Assembly (NCBI GenBank): GCA_038087875.1
Contig: JAXLNO010005827.1
Coordinates: 186,001 to 242,369 of the forward strand
Direction: 5' to 3'
Length of the DNA stretch: 56,369 nucleotides
Origin: Malacoraja senta
Lineage: Eukaryota
Under the pieces are notes generated by a model, which was given only the letters and a program-made list of their open reading frames with translations, made no database searches and was not told the origin of the DNA. Positions 8,991-47,749 of this stretch are shown here, one piece after another (the first letter of the stretch is position 1; every line of letters begins with the position of its first letter). Made by a program: the position numbers and the translations under genes.

Positions 8991-10744
8991 TCCTGCTGAT
9001 TAAGGTGCTCACGCTGCTGTTAGATAGGAAGTTTCAAGGTTTAGACCCATTAACCATAAAGCACCAGAGACATGTGCTAAACAGAACATTTTTACTGGCA
9101 ATATGAAGTTGCAAATTGGGATTGGCACAAATTAGGTAAGTTCCCACTCCATTTTAACAATGTCTATGTGAGTGGAAAGACTGAAGAAATGCAGAGGAGG
9201 AATAATTAAAGTTACAGTGCAGAATGACAGTGTGATGGCACTTGATCTTTTTACCAATCCAATCGATCCCATTTCCTCACTGCTGCCCAACATCATGCAA
9301 TCATCTACCTTCAAATATTCAACCAGTTCCACTTTGAAACAGTGATTAAATCAATATGCACCAGTTGGATGGGGTAGTGGGATATTGGGAGGAATGTGTG
9401 CACACCAGGGTGTGGCCACTAAAAAGTAATGGTGGGGGGCTTCCATAGGATTCAGTTTTAACTTGGTGGATGAGAATTTTGCGATGTGAACCAATGTTTC
9501 TTCAGTGACATCTTGATCACACATATCTTCTTAATGCATTTCCACTTTACCAGCCACTACCTTTCTTATAATAGAGGCAAGGAGCAGCTGGTCAAGATCG
9601 AATTCTGTCCAAGTTGTCCAAATCTAACACTGCTGATTTTACTTTGAGAGACACAAGGCCAGGATGTAGATGTAAAAGGGTATTGATGAGCAACATAGTA
9701 TCGTTCTCATCACGTCTGACATTATTAGTGGATTTTAGAACTTCTATTCTCAGTCATTTTCAAATTGCATCATTAAAATAGTACACAACAAATTCCTGTA
9801 TCACGTGGGATTGCTTAGATTTCAAATTGTAAGCTTTCCCCTACAAACTTACAAATACTTATCACCCATTAACCTTCCCAAACCAAACCAAAGTACTGAG
9901 GACTTCCTGTCATGTTGCAATTGATATCACCATTACCCAATGATGCTGGAACAAACCTGAGGCAGTGAATTAATCAAGCATAGAAACACAAGGGCCGCTC
10001 TTGAAATGAGAATAACTTGCTATAAATTAAGCTTAATGTGCAAGGTTTGGAAACCTGCAATGGAAATTTTTATGGTTTCTGTAAACGTTCCAGCTACAGT
10101 ATTTTCCTTACTTGGCAGTTAACTTCCATCAGGAATTACTGTCCATTGTAGAATCGCAGAGTATTTATGGCACAGAAAGAGATCAATTGGTCCATTGTGT
10201 CCATTTGCAAAAGAGGTCCCAATATATCACATCTTCCCATGCGTGATCCATTCCCATGCATTTAACATCTCACACACCGGCACTTTTAAAAAACTGAGAT
10301 AAGATTCTTGCCTGTCCTGTTCTTTCAGTAATTTCAGACCCTTCCACTATCCAAATGAAGAACAAACTTACTCATTTCCCCTCTAATCCAACCACTGCTT
10401 TAAATCTATATCATTTAAAAAAAAATACAACCTATGGTTCAATATCTCAGCCCATGTAAAGGCCTTGCTGCATCCGATGGACTGATTTACCAGTGAAGCA
10501 ACACAGATGCATTCAAGAAGAACTGTTTAGGATCCTATTTTTTGTTGGACCAGCCATAAAATCGATGGCTGTGATCTAGAAGTTCTTTGTGCATCGTACT
10601 GAACTGAGCGAGCATTAATAATAAACAAAGATTAGTTGACAAGTTAATGCTCTTCACTAAGGGCAATTCTTGGTTGGTTCTTGGTTTCTTGATCCTCCAA
10701 AATATTCCAAATGGAATTTAAACTGGAGGTGGTGGAGGGAGGAC

Positions 10745-12318
10745 TTAAGCCAGAAAGGGTTTTTGGGAAGAAAGAGCTACCTTAAATTTAGTTGTATCTG
10801 GTTGGGTAACTATAGTAGGGTGGAGATTATTCCATGCTTTAATTGTGCGGGGGAAGAATGAATTGCTGTACACATCTGTCTTGGTAGCTGGAATCACAAA
10901 TTGGATTGAATGCCCTCGTCTGCTCCTAATTGGTTTGGGTTTGGTGTAGGTCTTGTAATCTATGTTGAGCTGACCATTTAACATTTTGTAAAAACAGGTC
11001 AAACGGTGAGCTTCACGTCTGTCTTGGAGAGGGTTCCACCCCTGAGAATTCAGAAGTTTGGTAACACTCGCTTCTCTCTCATAGGTGTTAGTAACAAATC
11101 GAGCTGCCTGTCTTTGGACACGTTCGATGGAAGAAATGTTTTTGTTTGTGTATGGGTCCCATGCTGCAACTGCGTAGTCCAAATGAGGTCTAACGAGGGT
11201 GAAGTATAGCTTCTCCTTGACAGAAGTTGAACAATGATGAAAGTTGCGCCTCATAAAATTTAGGACATCTGTTGCTTTCACCGTTGCATGATGAGTCTGA
11301 CCATTCCAACGCAGATCATTCTGCAATTTGATGCCAAGATACTTGGTTTGTTTGGATTCTTCAAGGGTGGTACCAAGTATATTGTACGATGTTTCGCCTG
11401 GATTCTTCTTTCTGGTGACACGCATGGTTTCACATTTGGAAGGGTTGAACTGCATGCCCCATTGGTGTGACCACTCAACCATTGTATCGAGGTCCTTTTG
11501 GAGAGCATCTTCATCATCAGTTGACTTAATTGGACGGTACAGCAAACAATCATCAGCGAATAGTCTGGTCGTGCTTGCGACTTTTTCATGGATGTCATTT
11601 ATGTAAAGCAAAAACAGATGTGGGCCAAGTATTGTGCCCTGAGGTGTACCACTCAACACTGGATGCCAATTGGAGCTCTTTCCGTTCACACACACACGCT
11701 GAAGACGTTTTGTCAGGAAACTGGAAATCCATCGTTTCGTGTTGGAACGAATACCATAGAAGTCAAGCTCCGAAGCAGTCTCTGGTGTGGGATGACATCA
11801 AATGCTTTAGAAAAGTCCAGCACTACTAAATCCGTGATGACATTACCATCAAGATGTTTGGCCAGGTCATTTGTCGTCAGGATAAGCTGAGACTCACATG
11901 ATCTATGCCTCCTAAATGCATGTTGGTTGTCAGCAAGAATATTATGTTTGCTCACGTGTCGCATCAGATTACTATAAATTACATGCTCCAGTAATTTGCA
12001 GCAAGTACTTGTTAATGAAACAGGACGATAATTCGCTGGGTTGGTGGTTGAACCCTTCTTAAAGAGAGGAGTGATGTTAGCCTTCCTCCAATCCAGCGGA
12101 ACATCACCTGAGTCAAGCGATTGTTGGAAAATGAACTGCAAAACTGGAGCCAGTTCTTCGGCCGCGATCTTGAGGGCTTGATTCTGTATCTGATCTGGTC
12201 CAATTGCTTTTGTGGTATTGATGTTGAGCAATAACTTCTTGACACCTTCAACCTCAATTTTAATAGCAGGCATATCAGCATACGGGCTGGGCGGTAGAAC
12301 TGGAAATGATGAAGGCAC
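10745..12318 (-). pseudogene. LINE reverse transcriptase (frameshifted)
   Basis: Motifs GPDQI, NYRPVSLT, LDFSKAFD, GTPQGTILGP, LFADD, LVRPHLDYA and FFPRTI..WNNL. Confidence 0.93.
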
Positions 12319-12567
12319 GATCGACTTGCTTTCACATTCTAGTAAAATTGTCCCAGTCCAGTTTTGTACCCGTTTTTTTTGTACGGATATAAGACTTCAC
12401 TTTCTTACTGCAGAGACGTTTCAGTTTTGCCGAAAACCAAGGAGGACGCATACGGCCCTTAATGAGTTTTTGAGGAACATGATTTGTAACAATATTATTT
12501 AAAGAGTTTCTCAGCCACACCCAGTTGTCATTTACCGATCTTTTATCTGGTTGCAGGTTGAAGAAAT

Positions 12568-13419
12568 CTATTCCCAGTTTTTTGCTAAGACTTTAAATTC
12601 CTCGCTGTTCACTTTTCTCAAGAGGGAAATTTTACGCGGTGGCTTTGAAGGAACTTTAAGCTTTGTGTGCAGTTTTGCTTGGCTAATATAATGATCGCTA
12701 ATTCCAGCACACGATGAAACTTCCGAAATTAAATCTGGGTGAGAAGTGAACAATAAATCTAGAGTATTTTCGGTGCCACTTGTCTCATCACGTCTGGTAG
12801 GGAAAGTGACTTTTTGGGACAGGTGATTTTCCAGAGTAAGGTCAGCTAGGGCATCCTGGAGAGCTCCTTCTGGTTCACTTTGTATGCCGTCAGACCAATC
12901 TACACCTGGGACATTGAAATCGCCCCCCAGGATGATAAGTGGAGAGCGTGACGAGGCATTAATTTTGGAGATGATTGATCCAAGGTCTAAAAGAGGCTCC
13001 GTTTTCATGTCAGGTGGTCGGTAAGAGCTTCCGATCTGTAACGACTGACCCTCGAGTGTAGCTTGACACCAGATTTGCTCAGAGTCGCTGTTTAAGTCTG
13101 TACGTTCAAAACAAGGAATGGTATTGTTAACTCCGATGAAGACACCGCCTCCATGCGAGTTTCTGTCCTTTCTACAAATTTGAAGGTGAGGAGGGAAAAT
13201 CTCAGCAGATTTGATTGATGGGTCTAGCCAAGATTCAGACCCGATAAGGATATCAGGGTTTTCAGTTTCAATAAATGAATTGATCACAGCACATTTTCCT
13301 CTTATACTGCGGCAATTTATAACAGTGATTTTGATCCCATGTTCATTGCTGACATCATTGCGATCAATATCTTTGTTGGTACCATGAATCTCCTTTTGAG
13401 CATCACCATTACACGCCAC
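12568..13419 (-). pseudogene. LINE apurinic-like (APE) endonuclease
   Basis: Motifs INCRSI, SESWL, RKDR..GGGV, YRPP, GGDFN, TLDLLF and SDH. Confidence 0.92.
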
Positions 13420-13433
13420 TCAGGAGCAGTTTT

Positions 13434-13979
13434 TTAAAGTGTTATTTCCGGTAAGTGGCCAGCACAATTTGGGCTGGATGATCTTAAATTCTCATGATTC
13501 CATACGTCACAATCAGGGTCATCACTCAGAGATGTGAGACTTTCAAATGAATTGCTCAAGTTGAGCATACTTGTAAGGTCGCTTGACGAGTCAAAAAATG
13601 AGCTGGCAAGGTTGATGACATCGCACAATGGGCATAACCAGATGGCATTTGGATTTTTGGAGTGAAAACCAAAAGTGTCGTTTGACACATTGGAGCAGTT
13701 CAGGTGAAACCAACTTGTGCACATCGAGCACTGAATGCCAGAATCTTTAACAGCAAATGAGCACAAACCACACGGGTACTTTGGTTTACGTCCACGGTGC
13801 TGACCTTTTGGGCCAGGGTTGATGTTGATGTCCCCAGCCAGTAAATTGACAATAATGAACAATGGTAGGCGACCTCTAGGGTAGCCTAGAAAGGGGGTAG
13901 CTGAGCGTTTCGACCCATTTCCACGAAACGTATTTACGTATGTCTTCTGGACACTAATTTTGACGGACCATGGTCCCAT
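13434..13979 (-). pseudogene. LINE N-terminal segment: 2A-like peptide plus PHD finger
   Basis: LLAGDININPGP followed by CGLC-x10-CSMC-x4-H-x2-C-x18-WLCPLC (C4HC3). Confidence 0.85.
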
Positions 13980-14984
13980 TCATGGAAAATCCTCGATCCC
14001 AGTTGGGAGAAGACAATCAACAGAACCAAATACAACACTGGTGTTGATGTGTTTCGTATTCTTCCAGATCAAAGCATGGTACTAATTCAATCTTCGATTT
14101 TAGAAATCCAATACGGCACGAACGAGGTTACAGTATTCTATGTCATATATTGCAATTGGGCTGGGTGGCAGGAAAATCTTCAAGGTTAAAAACAGTTAAA
14201 AGCAGTAAGTTACCAGCGAAGATCACAAAATTGGTCTCGGCTGGTAGCACGGAATGCATGATGACAGGATAAAACGCTATTTTACTAGTTTAAAAAGAAT
14301 GTCACGATAAAATTGATCTTGGTTGTTAGCACAGCGATTTCCTTGCGCGATAAAAGATTAAAAAAGATTAAAAGATTAAAAACCCCACTTTACTAGTTAT
14401 AAAAAAAAAAGAAGGAAAATCGCGATAAATGAGAAAACTAAATAAGACACGGGAGGAAATAATAAACGTCCTCCCTTGGTGTTGTTAAGTTGTCAAGTCG
14501 TCCCTGTGTAACGGCCAAGGTCGGAGCGGCCCGGTGGACAGTGACAGTCAGCGCGGGCCCTGTCGTGGCCGAAGTGTACGGGTGGTCGGTGAAAATAAGT
14601 TGCCGTCGTCGGGCCTTAGTTTACCGCCGCCGTTGTTTTTGACCGGAGGGGGCTGCTGCGTTCGCGGTACTGCTGTTATTAGGTTGAAGCATATCCTCCC
14701 AAAATTATTGCCGAGTACAGATTGCTTTAAGAAGCATTGGGTTCTGGTGGTGAAAGTTTGATTTTCACACTGCAACTTGTGGACAAAGATTTTCCAGTAA
14801 CAGCCACTGTGATTGCTCCGGTGTGTAGCATGATGCATTATTGAAGCAGACAGATGAACCAGCCTAAACAAATGTCCAAATGGAGCTTTACAGCCATTCT
14901 ATAATTTCAGGTTGGAATTATCAACTGACCAAGAAAGGTCAAACAGTGGCAATGAATATATAGCCATTCCAATTGTTCTCAGGA

Positions 14985-15290
14985 AAAGGCCAATTGAAGA
15001 CAATAGGAGGATAGATTGAAGGTGAGAGGGAAACATTTAAAGAGGACCTGAGTACCAACTTTTGCACACACAAATTTGGTGGATATATGGAATAAACTGC
15101 CAGAGGGCATGGTAGAGGTTGGTTCAATTATAATTTTAAAAATAAATTTGGATAGGTTCCTGGATAGGAAAGGTTTTGAAGGATGTGGGCCCATTGCCGC
15201 TAAAGGGACAAACTCAGGAAGCCACCTTGGTCAACATTGTTGATTGGGCTGTAGGGCCTGTTTCCATGCTGTAAAACGTTATAAATTTAT
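14985..15290 (+). mobile_element. CR1/HER1 3' fragment
   Basis: ATATGGAATAAACTGCCAGAG...GGGCCTGTTTCCATGCTGTA tail. Confidence 0.75.
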
Positions 15291-15729
15291 GTCTCTGATG
15301 CTATAAACAGACACATGCCAAAAGCACAAGAATCATCATTAAATAGGCTTTTACTGGTAGTTTTGAGTACTGGTGGACTATTGACAAACAGTTGACAAGC
15401 AAAAGAGGATCAATCATTGGATTCTGCAATCTACTATTACTTTTCATTCAACAGAGCTATTAATGTACCATTGCTTCCCACTTATTTAAGCTTAGAAATG
15501 CCTAACTTAAAGGGAAGAGTAAGCTATTGTGCCAGAAGTCGTTGACTTTCAATAATACAAATCAAATATGATGGAATGCTGGTTGAGGTTGCTGGAATAG
15601 AGTGAGCATGCATTAAACTCAGCAATGGGAACTTAGTGATGGAGATATGTCAAAAATCATTTCAGAAGAGGTAGTGACATTATTGCAATTTTATGATTCA
15701 ACCAACATATATATTGAATTTCTTGTTGT

Positions 15730-16395
15730 TAGAATGAGAGGAATAGATCAGATAAATGCACCGTCTTTTGACCAGAGTAGGGGAATCGAGAGCCAGGGGA
15801 CATAGGTTTAAGTCGAAGGGGAAAAAATATAATAGGAACCTGAGTTTAGTTTAGATTAGAGATTTAGCACATCGAAACAGGATAAATGTTTGGCCCACCA
15901 ATCGACCAATGATCCCCGGACATTAACACTATCCTACACACACTAGAGACAATTTACACTTATACCAAGCCAATTTACCTACATACCTGTATGTCTTTGG
16001 ATTGCGGGAGGAAACTGAAGATCTCAAGAAAACCCACGCGGTCACAGGGAGACCTAGAAACTCCGTACAGACAGTACCCATAGTCGAGATCGAACCCGGG
16101 TCTCCGGCACTGCAAGCACTATAAATCAACAACTCTACCAATGTGCCGCTACTGGATAATTTTGTTAACACAAAGGGTGTTGGGTATATGGAACGATTGC
16201 TATAGAGGATATAGTTGAGGCAGGTACAATTGCAATATTTAAGAAGCATTAAGATAGTTACATGGGCAGGAGAGGTTTAGAGGGATACGGGCAGGAAGGT
16301 GGGACTAGTGTAGATGGGGCATGTTGGTTGGCATGGACAAGTTGGGCCGAAGAGCCTGTTTCCACGCTTTATGACTTTATGATGCCATGACTCTA
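15730..16395 (+). mobile_element. CR1/HER1 3' fragment split by a V-SINE
   Basis: CR1 sequence stops at AGGAACCTGAG (~15843) and resumes at GGATAATTTTGTTAACACAAAGGGTG (~16155). Tail is TATGACTTTATGATGCCATGACTCTA. Confidence 0.78.
15844..16150 (-). mobile_element. HE1-type V-SINE
   Basis: (TTTAG)n tail, V-core and B-box on the minus strand. Confidence 0.88.
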
Positions 16396-18913: not shown

Positions 18914-21264
18914 TAGACTCTATCAAGATGGCGCCTACCTGCGGCGACATTTTGCGAACGGCACAATGAAAAATAGTAAAATACAGTATTTTTTAACTTG
19001 CCTGCATCAGAGAATCCACTGAAATCAACGCTGTAAGTAGCGAGCTGCTAACGCATTTAAATGCATGAGCGCTACTGCGAACTCCCAATGTTAGCGACAG
19101 TAAGGGAATCCCCGATCAGAGGGGAATCCCCAACCTCGCGAAGGAGTGCAGGTACAGCAAGAACCTTACCTGCTAACACCGGGGAGGCCTTCATGGAGTC
19201 CGGAATCAAGGCCGTTGTGCAGGATCACCCAGCAGCAACGGAGCTGGAGGTGCCGACTGTAAGGGAATCCCCGAACTCAGGGGATTCCCCGACCTCGCGG
19301 AGACCCGTAAGTACTCTACCTTTAAACACCGAGGAGGGCGCCATGGAGTACAGAAACGTGGCCGTCGGGCAGGGCTACAAGTAAGACTGAAGCGCAGGGG
19401 ACTTCGGCCTCCTCTCCCTACTATCCTACTGGCCAACGTACAGTCACTTGAAAACAAAGTGGAGGACTTAAGGGCAAGGCTGCTTTATCAAAGGGAGCTG
19501 AGGGAATGCTCTGTGTTCTGTTTCACAGACACATGGCTCACCCCCAGCTCCCCAGACTCAGCAGTCCAGCCTGAAGGGTTCTCCATCCACCGTATGGACC
19601 GTACGCAGGCATCTGGGAAAGGGAGAGGAGGGGGCGTTTACCTCATGGTCAACTCTGCGTGGTGCTCAGACGTGGCAGTCCTGTCCAACCCCTGCTCTCC
19701 ACACCTCGAACATCTGGCGGTGAGGTGCCGTCCCTTCTACCTTCCGAGGGAATTCACCTCCATCATCCTGACCGCGGTCTACATCCCACCCCAGGCAGAC
19801 GTCCGTCTGGCACTGGAGGAGCTGCACACCATGGTCAACAAACACCAGACGTCTTACCCCAAGGCGTTTACCACCATAGCTGGGGACTTCAACAAAGCAA
19901 ACCTCAAGAAATCACTCCCTAACTTAAACCAACATGTCTCCTGATGCACCAGAGGACCAAACAACCCCGACCACTGCTACACCACCATCAAGTATGCCTA
20001 TCGCTCTATCCCTCGCCCTCACTTCGGTAAATCTGACCATACCGCAGCGCTGCTTCTTCCTGCCGACATGCAGCAATTAAAGAGCGCACCCCCAGAGGTG
20101 AGAACTGTACAGAGCTGGTCGGGATGGGGTAGAGGAACAACTACAGGACTGTTTGGAGTCTGTAGACTGGGCAATGTTCAGGGACACGGCAACGGACCTG
20201 AATGAATACTCCACAGTTGTTACAGACTTCATTAAGAAATGTGTGGAGGACTGCTTCCCAACAAAAACCTTCCAAGTGTTTCCCAATCAGAAGCCTTGGA
20301 TGAACTATGAGATCCGCACTCTTCTGAAGTTCAGACACCGGGCATTCATGTCTGATGATACAGTTGTCTACAAGAAGAACAGATACAACCTTAGTAAGGC
20401 CATCAGAAAGGCCAAAGGGGACTTCTGCTCCAAGCTGGCGGATGAGACTGATGTTCGGCAGCTGTGGCGGGGCCTGAATCCTATCACAAGGCGAAATCAG
20501 GAGGCAGCTCGAATGTCGGCGAAACAACACTCCCTGACGAGTTTTACGCACGCTTTGATAGGGAGAACACAGATGTGCCTTCTTGAGCCCCCATTCGCTG
20601 TGATGGTATTTCGGTCATGGTCACAGTGGTTGACATCAGAAAATTCTTCAGAGGGGTGAACTTTCGGAAAGCGCCTGGTCCTGATGGTATACCCGGTCGT
20701 GTTCTAAAAACCTGTGCGGACCAACTGGCTGGAGGTTTTACGGACATTTTCAACCTCTCATTTCTGAGGTCTGAGGTTCCCACCTGCTTTAAAAGGGCAT
20801 CAATTATACCAGTGCCCAAGACGTGCCTCAACAACTATCGACCAGTGGCACTAACGTCGGTGGTGATGAAGTGCTTTGAGAGGTTGATCATGGCACAAAT
20901 CAACTCCTACCTCGACAAAAACCTGGACCCACCGCAGTTCGCTTACCGCCACAACAGATCAGTGGTGGATGCGATCTCGCTGGCTCTCCATTCCGCTCTG
21001 GACCACTTGGACAACAAAAACTCATATGTCAGGCTGTTATTCATTGACTACAGCTCGGCATTTAACACAATCATCCCCTCCAAGCTAGTTACCAAACTCT
21101 CAGAACTGGATCTCTGCGCATCTCTCTGCAATTGGATCCTCGACTTCCTCATTCACAGACCACAGTCTGTTTGTATTGGTGGAAATGTGTCAACGTCGAT
21201 AACAATCAGCACGGGAGCACCTCAAGGCTGCGTGCTCAGCCCCCTGCTGTACTCACTCTATACT

Positions 21265-24200
21265 CAAGTTAAGTCAAGTTTATTAGTCACAATGCTCGCG
21301 GATTGTGCAAAAAAACAAACAAACAAACTTCAAACAGAATGGAACACAAACACATATTCACATATTACATATTTGTGGGAGGGAAGAAAAGGAAAAAAAC
21401 AGCAATTTTAAAAAGACACCACACAACAGTAAATTGGTCCAGTAAAGTTAGTCCCTGGAGTGATAGGAGTTTACAGTCCTAATGGCCTCTGGGAAGAAAC
21501 CCCTTCTCATCCTCTCCATTCTCACAGCATGGCAATGGAGGCGTTTGCCTGACCGTAGCAGCTGGAACAGTCCGTTGCAGGGGTGGAAGGGGTCTCCCAT
21601 GATCTTATTGGCTCTGGAGTTGCACCTTCTGATGTATAGTTCCTGCAGGGGGGCGAGTGAAGTTCCCATAGTGCATTCGGCCGAACGCACTACTTTCTGC
21701 AGAGCCTTCTTGTCCTGGGCAGAGCAATTCCCAAACCAAATCGTGATATTTCCGGACAAGATGCTTTCCACAGCCGCTGAGTAGAAGCACTGGAGGATCC
21801 TCAGAGACACTCTGAATTTCCTCAATTGCCTGAGGTGGTAAAGGTGCTGCCTTGCCTTACTCACCAGTGCTGCAGCGTGTGATGTCCATGTCATATCCTC
21901 AGAGATGTGGATTCCCAGGTATTTAAAACAGCTCACCCTATCCACAGCATCCCCATTTATCCTCAATGGTGTGTACGTCCTCGGATGATGTGCCCTCCTA
22001 AAGTCCACGATCAGCTCCTTCGTTTTTTTTGATATTCAAGAGGAGGCTGTTGTCCTGACACCAGAGTGCCAGATCAGCCACCTCCTCCCGGTAGGCCTTC
22101 TCATCGTTATCGGAGATCAGACCCACCACCACAGTGTCATCAGCAAACTTGATTACCAAGCCACACAGTCATGTGTGTACAGGGAGTACAGTAGGGGGCT
22201 GAGGACGCAACCCTGGGGAGATCCTGTGCTCAGGGTGAGGGACTTCGATGTATTTCCCCCCATCTTGACTACCTGGGGCCTGGTGGTGAGAAAGTCCAGG
22301 ACCCAGGCACACAGGTGGGTGTTGAGCCCCAATTCCAGCAGCTTCTCGGCCAGTCTGGTGGGGACTATCGTGTTGAAAGCTGAACTGAAGTCTATGAACA
22401 GCATCCTCACGTAGCCCCCCTTCTGGCTGTCAAGATGAGAGAGAGCGGTGTACAGAACCTGGGAGACCGTATCGTCCGTGGATCTGTTCGGACGGTATGC
22501 GAATTGTAGCGGGTCCATGTTGCAAGGGAGGAAGGCGCAGATGTGTTTCTTGACTAGCCTCTCAAAGCATTTCATCACTACCGAGGTGAGGGCCACCGGA
22601 CGCTAGTTATTCAGACAGGCTGGGGAGGCATTTTTAGGTACCGGTACAATGATGGATCTTTTGAAGCAGGCAGGGTCTTGGCCAGGGAGAGGTTGAATAT
22701 TATAGTGAGCACCGGAGCTAGCTGCGTAGCACAGGACTTAAGTACTCTGGGCCTGCAGCTTTCCTCGTGTTCATCCGTGACAGAGCTCTCCTCACGTCGT
22801 GCTCGGACAACGAGAATGTGTGCACATTCCTCCCTACAGCTTCGATAGCCAGCACGCTGGCGGTATTGTCTTTAGTCGGCAGACCTGGGGTGATGTTGCC
22901 CGTCTCGAAACGAGCGTAAAAGGAGTTCAGGTCATCAGCTAGGAAGGTGCCGGCACTTCCAGTTGAGGGGGGGCTGCTCCGGTAGTTGGTTACAGTCCGT
23001 AGCCCCTGCCACAGGCGTCTGGTGTCCTGCTGCTCCATCTGTGACTCCATCTTGTCTCTGTACTTCCTTTTTGCGTCCTTCACCGCCCTTCGCAGTCGGT
23101 AGCACTTTATTTAGGTATGTTACAATACTTACCTTAAGCGGCGCTGCAGTTCTGTCACTGCCCGTGTGCGCGACTTTGGCGCCGTTGAGAGGGGGGCGGG
23201 TTTAAAATGCGGTATTTCTGAAGCCTATTCAAATCAATCTTGAACAGGCTATATAGTTGATGAAGAAAAATCGCTTTGATTGCCGTTCTCTGGAATTATT
23301 TTTAAACTGCGCTTACTAATTTAATTATTGTAGTAAATTAAAAATCATCTTCTAAAGCCGTGAAAAATAAACTGTGAACAAGGTACACAGTTTATTTTTT
23401 CATAAAAAAGTGCTTCTTAGGATAACTTTAATCAAAATTTCACATTGCGAGAAGGTGACTTATTCCCCATATGAACCGGCAGTATTTTTCCTGCCGACAT
23501 GGGGTTTAAATTCACCGCAAATGCAACGTTCCAATTGATCGCGTTCCAGAAAATCTCACTCGCAAGATGATTTAAATGGCCATTAATTTACGGGAATTAA
23601 ACATTAAATTCCTTCCATTTGGCCTATAAATGAATGACAATGACATTTAAAAATCATGTTATATTGTGAATTCTTGTGTGAAGGTAGAATGGACGGCATG
23701 AGATCGTCAGGTGCTCCAGGTCCGGCGAGCAGGAACAGGAAAGCATCTTGATATTTACAGGATTGCACCAGTTGTTATTGGTCATGAGGCATGAGGCAGA
23801 CTCCTCCACCATTGGATTTCCCAGGTGCTTCTGTTCTGTCGGCACGATGGACAGTGAAGGACTCAGTTGGGCAGATTACCTGATCCGGAATCAGTGAGGT
23901 CAGCCATGTTTTGGTCAGGCAGAGGATGTTGCAGTCCCTTATGTCCCGCTGGAATCTGACTCTCGCCCTGAGGTCATCCAGCTTATTTTCCAGGGACTGA
24001 ACGTTCGCCAGAAGAATGCTGGGCAGAGGAGGACGAAAGGCTTGGGCTCTCAGCCTATTCTGAATCCCCCCCCCCCCCTGCTTACCCCGATGTTTTCTCC
24101 GGGTTTTCCTTGGAGCCGCGCTCCCACTGTTGATGCCGCGGCGCGTTCTGTTGATCTCTGCTGGCCACGCTGGATCGGTAAGTACAGCGTTTAAAAAGTC

Positions 24201-24364
24201 TCCGTTTATGCTAGGGTTTAGATTTAAGAGGGTTTCACTGCCATACTTTGTTAGTACTAGGGAGTTGGAACTTAGAAATAAGTTAAAAGGAACATGAAAG
24301 TTAAAAATACGCACAGTTTTCGCGGAGCTGCCACGACGGCGACTGGACAGGGCCGCGCCATCTT
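21265..24364 (-). mobile_element. Rex1/Babar LINE copy B, antisense, inserted in copy A, internally deleted
   Basis: Minus-strand ORFs 23775-24314 (LLANVQSLENK), 22718-23083, 22153-22596 ([17 protein letters not shown]) and 21448-22008. 5' AAGATGGCG at 24364-24356. (ACTTG)n tail at 21265. Confidence 0.92.
23112..23682 (+). mobile_element. Truncated TIR element, same family as 32010-33050
   Basis: Starts TAGGTATGTTACAATAC. Collinear with 32010-32600 up to GAATTCTTGTGTGAA. Confidence 0.85.
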
Positions 24365-26199
24365 TATTTTAATTTTTTTGACTGCGTAGCTCCATCATCA
24401 AGTTCGCCGACGACACCACTGTTGTGGGACGTATCACTGATGGAGATGAGTCAGAGTATAGAAGGGAGATCGACCGTTTGACCAAATGGTGCCAGCACAA
24501 TAACCTGGCTCTCAACACCAGCAAAACCAAGGAACTGATTGTGGACATTGGAAGGGGTAGGATGGGGACCCATAGTCCCACTTATATCAACGGGTCGATG
24601 GTGGAGAGGCTCAAGAGCTTCAAATTCCTAGGCATGCACATCTCTGAAGATCTCTCCTGGTCCGAGAACACTGATGCAATTATAAAGTAAGCTCATCAGC
24701 GCCTCTACTTCCTGAGAAGATTACGGAGAGTCGGTTTGTCAAGGCGGACTCTCTCACACTTCTACAGGTGCACAGTAGAGAGCATGCTGACCGGTTGCAT
24801 CGTGGCTTAGTTCGGCAACTTGAGCGCCCAGGAGAGGAAAAGACTGCAAAAAGTTGTCAACACTGCCCAGTCTATCATCGACTCTGACCTCCCTGCCATC
24901 AAGGGGATTCATCGCAGTCGCTGCCTCAAAAAGGCTGCCAGCATCATCAAGGACCCACATCATCCTGGCCACACACTCATCTCCCTGCTGCCTTCAGGTA
25001 GAAGGTACAGGAGCCTGAAATCTGCAACATCCAGGTTCAGGAATAGCTGCTTCCCCACAGCCATCAGGCTATTAAATAACTCAAACAAAACTCTGACCAT
25101 TAATAGCCCATTGCACTTTATCTGTTTATTTATGTGTGTATATATATATATATTCATTGGTATATGGTCACACTGTTCTGTTCTGTATTTATTTATGCCT
25201 ACTATATTCTGTAGTGTTGAAGCAAAGCAAGAATTTCATTGTCCTATCTGCGACACATGACAATAAACTCTCTTGAATCTTGAATCTCTATCACTACAAC
25301 ACTGTGCAACAACAGTACATTTCATATGACCATACAGGTCTTTGTTCTAGGATTCCAACCATTCAGTGTGATCATCTCAGAGTCTATTTATTCAATACCT
25401 TGACCATTCATATCTTTGTTTAAGATCATAGCTGTGACACAAATGTGATTATGTAATCAATGTTTGTTCTCTGTTTTCTTTTTTTTATGTCCCACAGCCT
25501 TGCTCTAACAGCTGCTTTAAGCTTAGGTTACAGCTCAAAGAATAAATTGTTTTAAAAAGTGGTTGGACAGAGGAAAAGACAATATTATTGGTCAGTCTGA
25601 AACTAATGGCAGGGCAAAAGGCAGGTTAATCATAAGAAATGGTGCACCATGTGAAAAGGAAAATTTAAAGAATGTAATTCAATAAAATAAGAGGAGTAAG
25701 GAATAAAAAGTGTGTTACTGAAACATCAGGGCAAAACCATGTGTGGCTCAAAGAAGCATTTTTTGTACAAATTCACTGAGGTTAAGAAATAAATTGAATG
25801 AACCGCAGATACAAATTCAACCTAGAAGATGTGGCAGCTGTTCAACACATATAAATAATTTTCCAGATTATTCACCAAGAAAAATTGATTTGTGAGTAGA
25901 CCCATAAAACATGGTCTATATTTCATCTTTTAATTGCTAATATTAATTGTATGTAATACTGAAATAATATCCCATATCCTCAGTCCTTGTTAGAATGGTT
26001 GCTCTGTGCCCACTTCCTCTTGAAACAGTCTGATGCTGGAATTACTGATTCATGCATAGGGTGGACGCCAAATGATAGCAGATGGGAAACCTAAACATTG
26101 AAAAATAATATTGTTTCCATCTTCAGTACAGTAAATGGGACCCATTATGTTCGCAGGAAGTGCAATGAGATAAAAGCATTTTGCATTGTACTAAATTTT

Positions 26200-38844: not shown

Positions 38845-39067
38845 CGCTATAACTTAGACGCTTCTCAAAAAACAAAACTGAAAGAAATTCCAAAACATCA
38901 GCTACTTCTGCCTTAAAGTAGTTCACGTGTGCATCCTTACAAAACGTTTCCCATTGTTTTATGTAGGTAGAATATTGCCTTCTTGTGCCATCTCGCCAAG
39001 CTGCAGTGATCAAGTCAACGGTCCTGCTGGTTCGTCCTATTCGCTCGAAAGGTCTTAAATCCTGCAA
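38845..39067 (-). pseudogene. DIRS tyrosine recombinase N-terminus (catalytic part missing)
   Basis: AAWRDGTRRQYSTYIKQWETFC...VLEFL...LSYS. Confidence 0.75.
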
Positions 39068-39831
39068 ATTAATAAATCAATGCGATCATGCAGTGGGTGA
39101 GGTGCCCGAGTGACAATTGTTCGTGTCTGTGAGCAATCAAAGGAGCTTCCTTCAGTAGTCCTTTTAACAATGGGAACCATGGTTGAGTAGGCTAGTTTGG
39201 TACTACTATCATTCCTGATAACTTGTCTTGAATTATCTTTTGCAGGCATCTTCCGATAAGGCAGAATGGGGGGAAAAGCATAAAATGATAATCCACCCTT
39301 GTCCATAGAAAACACATCTACTGCTTCTGCCCCTGGATCTGCTTGCCAGGCTACATGCCTTGGTACTTGGTTATTAAATCTTGAAGCAAACAGGTCAATC
39401 TCAGGTGTTCCATATCGAGATATTATCTTCTTGAACACTGCCTGATTTAACATCCATTCTGTTCGCTCATTGAATTTTCTAGACCTGGTGTCTGCTTCTA
39501 CGTTGTATCTACCTGGCAGGTGTGCAGCTGACACCCATATTCTTCTCTCTATACACCATGCCCAAATGGACTTTGCCAGTGTATCACATGATAGAGACCT
39601 GCAACCACCCATATGATTCACATACGTTACTGCTGTTGGGTTGTCCAGTTGCAGCCTGACATGCATTTCATGGTCATTCCCACAATACGTTGTTAATGCA
39701 TGGAATGCTGCTAGCATTTCCAAATAGTTGATACCGTACTTATGGCCAAGTCGCATCTCTTCCTCATTCCACCTACCACCACAACTAGAGTTGGTGTCAG
39801 TTGCACCCCAACCTTGTCCACTTAGCATCAC
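39055..39831 (-). pseudogene. DIRS RNase H plus Dam-like N6-adenine methyltransferase domain
   Basis: Motifs GWG, INYLEMLA, LDN..AVTYVN..GG, HLPG..N..AD, then PEIDLFAS and YAFPP. Confidence 0.85.
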
Positions 39832-40930
39832 TTTGTAATGTTATTGTGGGTTTACTCGATAGAATGACCCCTGAACACTCGTATGTGTGCTCAATCCACC
39901 ACTGTAATTCTGATGTCGACTCTGTCGTCAACTTCATATATCTATCAAAATGCCCTTTATTCAATCTTAGGGCCCGAACCTTCTCACGGTCCAGATTTCT
40001 ATAATGCATGGCCCCATATTGTGTGTCTGGGAAGGCAGCTACCATCTTGCCAATCACCATTGCAACCTGCCGTATAGTAGGCATCTTATTTTTGAGTAAA
40101 CCTGTGCATGCCTCTACAATATCCTGTTTCCTATCAGTGGGTAGGGTCACAGACATATCTGCAGAGTTTATGACAAAACATAGATATGTAATAGATTTTG
40201 TCGGCTCCAGCATGGAGTTTCCAGGATGAATAACAAACCCTAGATTTTCTAGGAGTGCCTTGGTTGCTGAAATAGTTAACTCTGTGACACATGATGTCTT
40301 CCCGATAATGAGCATGTCATCTATAAACCCCATGACAATATGCCCTTTAGATCTGAGTCGGGCAAACACTGGCTTTAGGAACTTTGTAAATAGCCTAGGG
40401 CTGAACTCAACCCATTAGGTAGAGCCTTAAAATGCCATAACTGGCCTTGTCAGATAAACTTCAGATATTTCCTGTGACTCTCATGTATAGGTACTGAATA
40501 GTATGCATCTTTGAGATCTATAGAGGCCATAAACAATCCTCTGTAATCAGCTGTTTTGCTGAATTAAAATTTTCCATCTTCAAGTGGTTATATTCCAAAC
40601 ACGTGTTCAGACTCGCCCAATCAAGAATGATTCAGTATCCTCCACTTTTCTTCACCCTAGAAAAGATATTAGAAATATACTCCTCTTGTTCATGGACAGA
40701 CTGCTCAATCACACCCTTGTTGTGTAATTTCTCTATCTCAACTAGGATAGCCATAGTTTCCTCGTTTGACCGTATGAACGGGAATCTTGGCTTCTCTTGT
40801 CGCGGGGGAAATTTGTCAGCCAGAAACTCAATCTTGTAACCATTTATGATTTGTAAAATGAAAGGATCCGAGGTTATCTGTTCCCACCTGTTTTTGATCA
40901 ATCTACCTCCGACTTGAATATCGTCAGCAC
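39797..40930 (-). pseudogene. DIRS reverse transcriptase (disrupted)
   Basis: Motifs VGGRL..WEQITSDPFILQIINGYKIEF, YISNIFSRVKK, IDLKDAY and FIDD. Confidence 0.88.
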
Positions 40931-41005
40931 ATCTCATGCGACTGATGGAATAATATTCACTTACCTCAACGGCCTTAGGCGGTTGATCAATAGAGTCAGC
41001 TGACC

Positions 41006-42148
41006 CTAGATTTTGTTCTGTCCCCTCCCTTTGGCTCCGGCATCGTGGCCTGCTGGGGGACGAGACTGAGTATGTGGAGTACGCTGCCTCCATGGTGAGC
41101 GCTGTGAACCTGCGCATAAAAATGGCCTCAGGCTTGGTCTTAATTGTGTAGGCCTGGTGCTCCAACCAGCCTCAGAGTAGCGATTTCTGCTGCTAGCTTG
41201 GTAGAGATGATATACACGCCGGTAGACGGGAGTCTTACCCATAAAGGGTGTCTTTACCACACTCACAGCCGCCTTGATTTCCTCTTGCAAGTCTTTTACT
41301 TGCTTGCTCAAGTCTTCTCCAAAGAGATACTTTGCAGACTGCACATTACTAGCCCTGCACAAATGAGCATCTTTAGGGTTGATCTCAGGCCTTATACCAT
41401 CTTTGCGAATGCAATTGAGCTCAAATTGTGCATTACACAGAAGTGCTAATGTGTCTTGCTGCAATTCAGACAGCTGAGTTCCATCCACCGACCTTGCAAA
41501 AACCATAATCCCTCTTGTGAGAAGTCTCTGAACTCGCTGTAGTTTTAAGTCTTTTGACTTTATTTTGCCATTTAGATTATCCCAAATGGTGGCGTTAACC
41601 TTTGGAACATCCAGAGTCTGGCAGTTATCAGGACTAGCATACTTCCCAGCAGTGTCCTGCATATTTTTCTCATTCAGCTGATGAGAAGTCAAGTAACCAA
41701 TGCTCCTTGCCAGTTCTTCCTCTAATGGTTCTCCTATCCCCGAGGGGATGGCAAATTTTGTCGCAAGTGCCGACAGCTCCTTCTTAGGCTTGAACTGCAA
41801 CATATCACCCACTTGTTCAGGGGATTTGAGTTCATTCTCGATTTCCCCGCAGTCAGAGTCTACCATGTAATAATCCTCAACACTCCCCTCCTCTGAGCAG
41901 GAGATATCATAATGCAACCCTGAACCAGGTATTGCTGCCGCAGACATCTGACTGGAACTACCTGTATCGGTTGCCTGTGTGCGGAGCACATTCCCTTTCA
42001 CCAGCCTCTCAATCAGGTTTTCCAATTTTGAGAGCCAACAGATGATATCCTCAATGGATGTTGAGGCAGTACCTTCCTGCCCAGTATTATCCTTTTGGAC
42101 ATTTTTTGCCGTTTTGGCCTTGGCCTGCCCTGAACTCGGGGTTGCCAA
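41006..42148 (-). CDS. DIRS ORF1 (gag-like), open over 380 aa
   Basis: PDNCQTLDVPKVNATIW...DLKLQRVQ...LFGEDL pattern of DIRS ORF1. Lies upstream of RT. The true start may be further 5'. Confidence 0.75.
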   Translation of the reverse strand: MATPSSGQAKAKTAKNVQKDNTGQEGTASTSIEDIICWLSKLENLIERLVKGNVLRTQATDTGSSSQMSAAAIPGSGLHYDISCSEEGSVEDYYMVDSDCGEIENELKSPEQVGDMLQFKPKKELSALATKFAIPSGIGEPLEEELARSIGYLTSHQLNEKNMQDTAGKYASPDNCQTLDVPKVNATIWDNLNGKIKSKDLKLQRVQRLLTRGIMVFARSVDGTQLSELQQDTLALLCNAQFELNCIRKDGIRPEINPKDAHLCRASNVQSAKYLFGEDLSKQVKDLQEEIKAAVSVVKTPFMGKTPVYRRVYHLYQASSRNRYSEAGWSTRPTQLRPSLRPFLCAGSQRSPWRQRTPHTQSRPPAGHDAGAKGRGQNKI

Positions 42149-42579
42149 ACTGCTCCCTTTTGGAGCTGTTGCAGAGGTTGTTGTGCAGGCTGCGCCTGCC
42201 AGCGTCTCCGAGTTTGATACCGACGGCCACCGATCTCTCCCGTCGCCGCGGTTATCTGCCGCTGACTTTTCAGCTGCATGTTTTCCCTTGGTTTTAGGCT
42301 TCTCTATTCTTGGGACCTAAACCAACGTCGAAAGCGACAGTTCCCGTGAAACTTACCTTCCGACTTTTAATGCTGTATCGCAGGGAAATCCCGACGTCCA
42401 TTTCCACATCCGAATCTTGCGCCATGCGTCGACGTATTGACGCGCATGCGGGCTGGCGGGTTCTTCACGTAGTCTCGTCACGAGACTTCGAAATAATATC
42501 ACACTTGACTCTTGATTCTCTTGACATCCTTCCTGTAGCTTCATGACCTCAACTGCACTAGTATGATGGCACCCACGGC

Positions 42580-46396: not shown

Positions 46397-47749
46397 AAAG
46401 ATGGGATAGCAGCACATTTGGAAAGTGGTGAAATCATTGGACAAAGTAAGCATGGATTTACGAAAGGTAAATCATGTCTGACGAATCTTATAGAATTTTT
46501 CTAGGATGTAACTAGTGGAGTGGATAGGGGAGAACCAGTGGATGTGTTGTATCTGGACTTTCAGAAGGCTTTTGACAAGGTCCCACATAAGAGATTAGTA
46601 TACAAACTTAAAGCACACGGTATTGGGGGTTCAGTATTGATGTGGATAGAGAACTGGCTGGCAAACAGGAAGCAAAGAGTAGGAGTAAACGGGTCCTTTT
46701 CACAATGGCAGGCAGTGACTAGTGGGGTACCGCAAGGCTCAGTGCTGGGACCCCAGCTATTTACAATTTATATTAATGAACTGGATGACGGAATTGAAGG
46801 CAACATCTCCAAGTTTGCGGATGACACTAAGCTGGGGGGCAGTGTTAGCTGTGAGGAGGATGCTAGGAGACTGCAAGGTGACTTGGATAGGCTGGGTGAG
46901 TGGGCAAATGTTTGGCAGATGCAGTATAATGTGGATAAATGTGAGGTTATCCACTTTGGTGGCAAAAACAGGAAAGTAGACTATTATCTAAATGGTGGAC
47001 GATTAGGAAAAGGGGAGATGCAGCGAGACCTGGGTGTCATGGTACACCAGTCATTGAAAGTAGGCATGCAGGTGCAGCAGGCAGTGAAGAAAGCGAATGG
47101 TATGTTAGCTTTCATAGCAAAAGGATTTGAGTATAGGAGCAGGGAGGTTCTACTGCAGTTGTACAGGGTCTTGGTGAGACCACACCTGGAGTATTGCGTA
47201 CAGTTTTGGTCTCCAAATCTGAGGAAGGACATTATAGCCATAGAGGGAGTGCAGAGAAGATTCACCAGACTGATTCCTGGGATGTCAGGTCTTTCATATG
47301 AAGAAAGACTGGATAGACTTGGCTTGTACTCGCTAGAATTTAGGAGATTGAGAGGGGATCTTATAGAAACGTACAAAATTCTTATGGGGTTGGACAGGCT
47401 AGATGCGGGAAGATTGTTCCCGATGTTGGGGAAGTCCAGGACAAGGGGTCACAGCTTAAGGATAAGGGGGAAATCCTTTAAGACCGAGATGAGAAAAAAC
47501 TTTTTCACACAGAGAGTGGTGAATCTCTGGAACTCTCTGGCACAGAGGGTAGTTGAGGCCAGTTCATTGGCTATATTTAAGAGGGAGTTAGATGTGGCCC
47601 TTGTGGCTAAAGGGATCAGGGGGTATGGAGAGAAGGAAGGTACGGGATACTGAGTTGGATGATCAGCCATGATCATATTGAATGGCGGTGCAGGCTCAAA
47701 GGGTCGAATGGCCTACTCCTGCACCTATTTTCTATGTATCTATGTATCT
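46397..47749 (+). mobile_element. Young 5'-truncated CR1/HER1-type LINE
   Basis: AATCTT duplicated at 46391-46396 and 47750-47755. (TCTATGTA)n tail. Confidence 0.92.
46520..47653 (+). pseudogene. CR1 ORF2 reverse transcriptase, C-terminal 377 aa uninterrupted
   Basis: Motifs YLDFQKAFDKVPH, SGVPQGSVLGP, KFADDTK, LVRPHLEYCVQFW and FFTQRVVNLWNSL. Confidence 0.95.

Follow-up and report, generated by a model that had tools for sequence, protein, structure and literature searches.

The window analyzed here, a 56,369-nucleotide stretch of the Malacoraja senta genome (contig JAXLNO010005827.1, positions 186,001 to 242,369), carries on its minus strand a broken, 5'-truncated copy of a young single-ORF LINE, probably of the CR1 clade (10670..14673), which aligned by blastn to 20 longer loci in three blocks at 96 to 98.5% identity. 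Read from its 5' end, the copy begins with a remnant of the 5' UTR (14078..14673), followed by the true start codon in an ACCATG context (14075..14077), the same 10-nt context being found in 27 of the 29 scored loci. A basic n-region then leads into a hydrophobic stretch that resembles a signal peptide or signal anchor (13994..14038, intact residues 14 to 28 as counted from the ATG). The 2A-like tract (13809..13904, intact residues 59 to 90) consists of a basic patch, a short predicted hydrophobic helix and the core motif GD-I-N-x-NPG|P (13809..13835). Downstream lie a PHD finger (13623..13772; PF00628, pLDDT 80 to 89 in an AlphaFold model), an APE endonuclease domain (12691..13332, ends approximate; PF14529 at E 5e-13 and PF03372), a reverse transcriptase (RT) domain (11324..12057; PF00078 in two frames), and a stop codon with a short 3' UTR and a microsatellite-like tail of short AAGAACC-type units (10670..10747).

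The window copy is dead. In-register translation showed a stop at codon 3 (14069-14071), which is present in the window copy (L001) and in locus L002, and pairwise alignments revealed a 1-bp deletion in codon 40 (13959..13961; aligned to L031, L049 and L032), a 196-bp deletion just upstream of the APE domain (~13416), two deletions upstream of the RT (1 bp near 12583 and 209 bp near 12316), and a 1-bp deletion near 11769 that splits the RT. No clear target-site duplication was seen by eye at the ends of the copy. When positions 9001-16000 of the window were compared with locus L050, the two were 99.93% identical over the 7 kb compared, in the element and the flanks alike. Since the flanks are identical too, L050 represents a segmental duplicate or a second haplotype rather than an independent insertion.

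An earlier, sequence-only reading of this DNA had assigned a virus-like 2A motif (residues 38 to 57 of a minus-strand ORF) to the start of a LINE polyprotein of the APE type, with a PHD finger following immediately. The placement was correct: GDININPGP ends the 20-residue stretch at residues 38 to 57 of the ORF 13434-13979 (181 aa), PF00628 matched ORF residues 70 to 119 (E 5e-5; 23.6 bits, just below the 24-bit cut-off), and the APE and RT domains follow in frames downstream of the motif ORF. The N codon of NPGP starts at 13820, and the Gly-Pro bond predicted to be skipped lies between 13812 and 13811 on the minus strand. Fourteen NPG triplets were listed for the window over all six frames, and none of the others reads NPGP. 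Chance matches to D[VI]xxNPGP are expected at ~0.002 per window (hand arithmetic from base composition at a GC of ~0.43).

The Met of this ORF at 13979 is in frame only because of the 1-bp deletion near 13960, and it is hence a false N-terminus. The released peptide of about 56 aa that had been proposed turned out to be an artefact of this frameshift: from the true ATG at 14077, the Gly-Pro bond follows residue 89, and the intact leader is 89 aa long. The signal-peptide-like N-terminus of this true leader had been overlooked. As for activity of the window copy itself, the codon-3 stop, the frameshifts and the two internal deletions leave that suggestion unsupported.

To explore the family to which the copy belongs, we searched the DNA of the same genome (1.94 Gb). 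Forty of the 81 candidates were scored, and all 40 matched at 92 to 100% identity on many contigs. The 20 longer loci are scattered copies that differ in their 5' ends and share one 3' microsatellite tail, and other copies extend about 350 nt further 5' than the window copy. Dispersed 5'-truncated copies with such a tail (all 40 scored candidates match), together with APE followed by RT in one ORF (Pfam, L031 protein), place the family among the APE-type non-LTR retrotransposons. The mean pairwise divergence among 15 non-duplicate, near-complete copies, after three duplicates and two partial loci were dropped, was 1.9%, indicating that the family is young and has spread recently.

Locus L031 is an unbroken natural copy that encodes one 1246-aa protein from the ATG, with APE and then RT (Pfam). 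The architecture is a single ORF of leader, 2A, PHD, APE and RT, in which the placement of the PHD finger rests on the window copy, as Pfam did not list PHD for the intact L031 protein. No ORF1 was found in the two longest copies, which have a UTR of ~950 nt with a GC/CpG-rich 5' end and a longest ATG-started uORF of 36 aa. One of them (L047) has a single upstream ATG with a 2-aa uORF and a GC content of 67% in its first 450 nt, and the other (L049) has four upstream ATGs with uORFs of 1 to 36 aa. The exact 5' end of the element is based on three loci, two of them duplicates.

The motif was read in 30 loci (29 scored together and L024 separately), several of which are duplicates, so that the counts do not represent 30 independent insertions. 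GDINLNPGP was found in 23 loci, GDININPGP in two, and single private changes in five. NPGP is retained in 29 of the 30, but DININPGP is not fixed across copies: the I is private to the window copy and its 99.9% duplicate, and the family has L. The N noted earlier at the E position occurs in 29 of the 30 loci, with K in one. The canonical core D(V/I)ExNPGP is thus absent, and with N in place of E the motif was filed as a 2A-like variant rather than a canonical 2A. Variants among the 15 copies are mostly private and look neutral (in the leader, 20 non-synonymous and 7 synonymous changes and 2 stops), and the shared variants are too few for a selection test. The same genome also contains older LINE families, now decayed and at least four in number, in which a motif of this type is followed by a PHD-like region, APE and RT (10 loci, L095-L104). 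In these loci A, N and E occur at the fourth position.

By eye, the RT motifs match CR1_BF and CR1_NV entries. In an RT tree of 33 hand-chosen rows, which was rooted at the midpoint and in which L2, Crack and invertebrate CR1 were not represented by labelled references, the 2A family fell outside vertebrate CR1 and grouped with Branchiostoma (amphioxus) and Pinctada (oyster) elements (100/100). Its nearest relatives are 74% identical over APE-RT, and the family may have originated by old retention or by transfer from an invertebrate. The window also contains a vertebrate-type CR1 RT fragment on the plus strand (46505-47650), which is 88 to 94% identical to skate sequences and, within the CR1s of sharks and rays, has a Leucoraja sequence as its sister (99/95).

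We then analyzed the conservation of the 2A-like tract. In six relatives, taken either for their APE-RT similarity or from the clusters so obtained, residues 59 to 90 are 78 to 94% identical, while the RT of the same six is 59 to 78% identical. N at the E position is common to three lineages among the six, with RTs 72 to 78% identical, and the other two have S and Q. Locus L105 agrees at 27 of 34 positions and uses a different codon at 16 of these 27, showing that the constraint acts on the peptide; an RNA-level cause of the conservation was rejected on this one comparison. Among 173 relatives, in a tally bounded by the search pattern, the motif has G in 156, D in 161 and I or V in 158, then E in 74, Q in 29, N in 22, S in 20 and H in 19 at the E position, and finally N in 165, P in 172, G in 173 (required by the pattern) and P in 168.

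Four Leu fall within positions -19 to -10 of the skip site. The AlphaFold model predicts a helix at residues 71 to 81 (local pLDDT ~70) that ends about 10 residues before the skip site; the confidence of the whole model is low (pLDDT 66, pTM 0.36), and only its local helices and the PHD finger were used. Judged by this conservation, the motif is real and under selection.

Active eukaryotic 2A helices likewise end about 10 residues before the skip site (PMC13405545). The arrangement 2A-PHD-APE-RT in single-ORF CR1 and Crack elements has been published (PMC3708506; PMC3894237), as has the low activity that E-to-N variants keep in vitro (PMC3708506), so an unusual status of the motif itself is not supported. 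Among the D[IV]NxNPGP peptides tested, three of seven skip and four of seven lower the protein level, and of the three tested peptides nearest to that of this LINE (ending LLLAGDVNLNPGP), one skips, two do not, and all three reduce (PMC13405545). The LINE's own 2A peptide is absent from the three tables of tested peptides in which hits were obtained. By analogy, the activity of the N-for-E motif is probably partial.

To further explore the leader, we analyzed its N-terminal hydrophobic stretch. The intact leader has a basic n-region followed by 15 hydrophobic residues with a Kyte-Doolittle 10-residue maximum of 3.14; residues 12 to 26 are unchanged in 25 of the 29 scored loci of the family, and the AlphaFold model has a helix at residues 13 to 35. 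By hydropathy, the leader has, within its first ~30 residues, the basic n-region and the h-region typical of an ER signal peptide or type II signal anchor. For the wider comparison, an h-region was called when a 10-residue hydropathy window reached at least 2.2 within the first 30 windows, a hydropathy heuristic with shuffle controls.

Set A comprised 120 APE-RT hits and the query, of which 59 have a PHD, 49 have the motif, and 42 have leaders of at least 60 aa. An N-terminal h-region was found in 37 of these 42 leaders (7.1 expected from shuffles) and in 0 of the 62 set-A proteins without a leader or PHD. Set B comprised 150 hits to the leader plus PHD, and 70 of its 95 leaders of at least 60 aa have the h-region (15.6 expected from shuffles). 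From the raw DNA of 26 metagenome loci, some of them near-duplicates and several without a PHD, 18 such leaders were read from the first Met after a stop, and 13 have the h-region (2.5 expected). As the sequences are related, these counts are not independent.

The sequence of the h-region is not conserved (0 to 37% identity in the six relatives, three of which were called from a later Met), but its character is kept, and low sequence conservation is usual for signal peptides. The median uncharged span of the h-region is 17 residues, and the n-side mean charge is +0.9. We consider the signal-like leader, as a pattern in predicted proteins, to be well supported. The leader has no family match (Pfam on the intact copy; the ESM Atlas gave PHD clusters only, all <0.9), and in a protein search with residues 1 to 170 among full-length proteins, 0 of 236 candidates were scored. 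N-glycosylation sequons are not enriched in the spacer (57 against 48.8 expected).

It is possible that the leader signal and the 2A-like motif act together, and we put the probability of the following reading at roughly 45%. The signal-peptide-like stretch would bring the translating ribosome to the endoplasmic reticulum via SRP, and a partial skip at the predicted NPG|P bond would release the 89-residue leader. After the skip, the PHD-endonuclease-reverse-transcriptase protein would be made in the cytosol, while unskipped chains would be directed into the ER by the signal or would be broken down. With the unskipped chains lost, the signal and a weak 2A together would ration the enzyme. By the time the ribosome reaches Gly89, the h-region has emerged far beyond the exit tunnel, judging from the length of the tunnel and the timing of SRP action, and SRP could thus already have docked the leader at the ER.

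Published work bears on this proposed docking and rationing in both directions. In engineered signal-protein-2A-protein constructs, the downstream product was cytosolic if skipping occurred and part of an ER-entering fusion if not (PMC2978324), and the sea-urchin NLRs provide a natural case of dual targeting by signal and 2A (PMC4981915), which counts in its favor. On the other hand, the translocon can inhibit 2A skipping (PMC2978324), and the E that is almost invariant in viral 2As (PMC12846837) is kept in only 74 of the 173 relatives here; both count against it. A signal that made skipping essential might also be expected to go with more frequent retention of E, which is not the case: the h-region was found in 46 of 57 leaders with E and in 61 of 80 without (P 0.68). 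The hydrophobicity of the second segment showed no association with E at the motif either (P 0.28). The lack of a sequon excess in the spacer also weighs against the model, as does the absence of leader reads in the one RNA run analyzed (see below).

The free replacement of E among the 173 relatives would also agree with a different reading, which we consider unlikely, in which the motif stalls the ribosome and lowers output with little skipping, the hydrophobic N-terminus leads to quality control, and the scarce surviving fusion does the work. Protein levels fell with the majority of the retrotransposon 2A-like peptides assayed (59% of ORF2p cases), and two of the three closest tested peptides were classed as 'non-skipping, reduced' (PMC13405545). 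However, 168 of 173 relatives retain the terminal Pro and all 173 the pattern-required G, as a skip needs, and a signal-bearing fusion would be hard to hold in the cytosol (PMC2978324).

The leaders have a second hydrophobic run before the GD, and a membrane tether would have to make use of it: the first stretch would insert, the second would stop transfer, and the enzyme would remain attached to the ER or nuclear envelope on the cytosolic side, or be freed by signal peptidase near the GD. Such a tether, which we nevertheless regard as improbable, agrees with the two hydrophobic stretches and the basic patch that precedes the second of them. The second run is short, with a median of 11 uncharged residues, only 23 of 163 reaching 15, and a 19-residue hydropathy of 1.15 in this family, and it is weak in 15 of 137 leaders that still carry the motif. 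Since the run is short and its predicted helix ends ~10 residues before the skip site, in the model it looks more like a 2A helix of the exit tunnel than like a membrane span. By the positive-inside rule, a basic patch is expected off the lumenal side, whereas under the tether it would be lumenal, and the near-invariant NPGP would be left unexplained. That 2A-like stretches can themselves serve as signal sequences (PMC4981915) speaks for the tether.

The spacer between the two stretches bears on whether the leader is the product itself, made in excess by the 2A as a small peptide for secretion or for the membrane, or in place of an ORF1. For sequences that precede a 2A, such a role has been suggested in a general way (PMC3708506), and the closest relatives have conserved spacer motifs such as YGRI.PF. 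The present family, which is without the YGRI.PF motif and ~35 spacer residues of those relatives, has still spread recently (1.9% among 15 copies), and across the wider set the leaders vary widely in sequence and length (mostly 72 to 141 aa). The leader of the present family also matches no known family, so we hold this explanation to be a poor candidate. In the closest relatives (P0123-P0141), the longer spacer with YGRI.PF is followed by a Tyr and a Cys-containing motif. Finally, that the 2A is a decayed relic with a hydrophobic N-terminus by chance is very improbable: the E is lost and many CR1 2A-like sequences are inactive in vitro (PMC3708506), but protein-level conservation of the tract exceeds that of the RT, N is common to relatives with RTs 72 to 78% identical, and the h-region is present in 37 of 42 leaders against 7.1 expected.

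With respect to its 2A, the LINE is a further member of a published type, and the signal-like leader is the new point. The 2A-bearing single-ORF CR1-clade elements of amphioxus, sea urchin, molluscs and sea anemone (CR1-1_BF, STR-24/25/34/35_SP; Odon et al. 2013, PMC3708506) have the same leader-2A-PHD-APE-RT layout, with the motif likewise at the head of the protein. They differ in that the motif was stated at 40-80, whereas here it ends at residue 90, and in that no such elements were found in fish, whereas the present host is a cartilaginous fish; ORF2p 2As were later reported 'from algae to fish' (PMC13405545). The available portions of Odon et al. (PMC3708506) make no mention of a signal or hydrophobic leader. 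In the literature searched (PMC3708506, PMC3894237, PMC12338488 and PMC13405545, in the portions available, with most subscription papers and theses outside), no signal or membrane leader was found on 2A-bearing LINEs.

Other systems share parts of the arrangement. The 2A-like signals of the sea-urchin NLRs (Roulston et al. 2016, PMC4981915) likewise combine a signal with StopGo and split products between the secretory pathway and the cytosol, as is proposed here, but in the NLRs, which are host genes, the N-terminal signal is the 2A itself. In the present retrotransposon the two are distinct, with the h-region placed ~60 residues upstream of the 2A. Viral class A 2A, with the core (D/G/C/N)(V/I)ExNPGP, shares the G-D-I-x-x-N-P-G-P core and the upstream hydrophobic helix, but its E is nearly invariant and here is N (PMC12846837). 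In yeast Ty1, SRP brings the RNA and Gag to the ER (Doh et al. 2014, PMC3945221), so that translation of a retrotransposon at the ER with the help of SRP has a precedent; Ty1 is an LTR element without a 2A, its Gag is translocated and returned, and its protein is unrelated to that of this LINE. L1Tc/Ingi of trypanosomes also has a 2A upstream of APE in a single ORF, which lowers downstream output, but it belongs to the Ingi clade, has the canonical E, is highly active and, unlike this LINE, has no PHD (PMC5814959).

The 2A in such LINEs has been known since 2013, and the question addressed here is the role of the upstream peptide. In the published assays, cytosolic reporters carried just the 2A tract and lacked the native leader. 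Since the translocon changes 2A efficiency, such assays may misjudge activity if the leader is an ER signal. A young family with an unbroken natural copy in a vertebrate makes the leader question directly testable. If the docking and rationing reading is true, a nuclear-acting enzyme would be made through the secretory machinery. More tentatively, and doubtful as a generalization, a large group of single-ORF CR1 LINEs, from marine invertebrates to skate, might be translated at the ER, with an N-terminal signal bringing ribosome and RNA to the translocon and StopGo gating birth of the enzyme in the cytosol beside their own RNA against discard in the ER. Transposition would then be coupled to the state of the secretory pathway, and a compartment switch would replace ORF1/ORF2 control.

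Sequencing runs of seven organisms contain parts of the element, and no RNA runs are listed among the runs on record that contain it. In one polyA RNA run of a related organism, 6% of which was read, 587 reads matched, mostly in the 3' half and mostly continuing into unlike sequence, and none fell in the leader. In run X19, the summed contig depth along L047:1560-6400 rises from ~250 over the leader to ~700,000 at the 3' end, which suggests that a related organism has a great number of short 3' copies or a SINE with the same tail.

Two further loci carry the motif in other surroundings. In L128, a canonical-E motif follows a 176-aa leader without h-region or PHD and precedes 1000 aa of open frame, and in L123 the frame of the motif begins with what we take to be a DNA-transposase fragment. 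Elsewhere in the window, further retroelement remains lie at 20102-24368 and 39058-42316 (RT matches at 20587-21408 and 39800-40414), presumably Rex1/Babar-like and DIRS-like, respectively. A short repeat with similar translations occurs at five places (~16093, 18275, 26454, 26953 and 51666) and is probably a tRNA-derived SINE.
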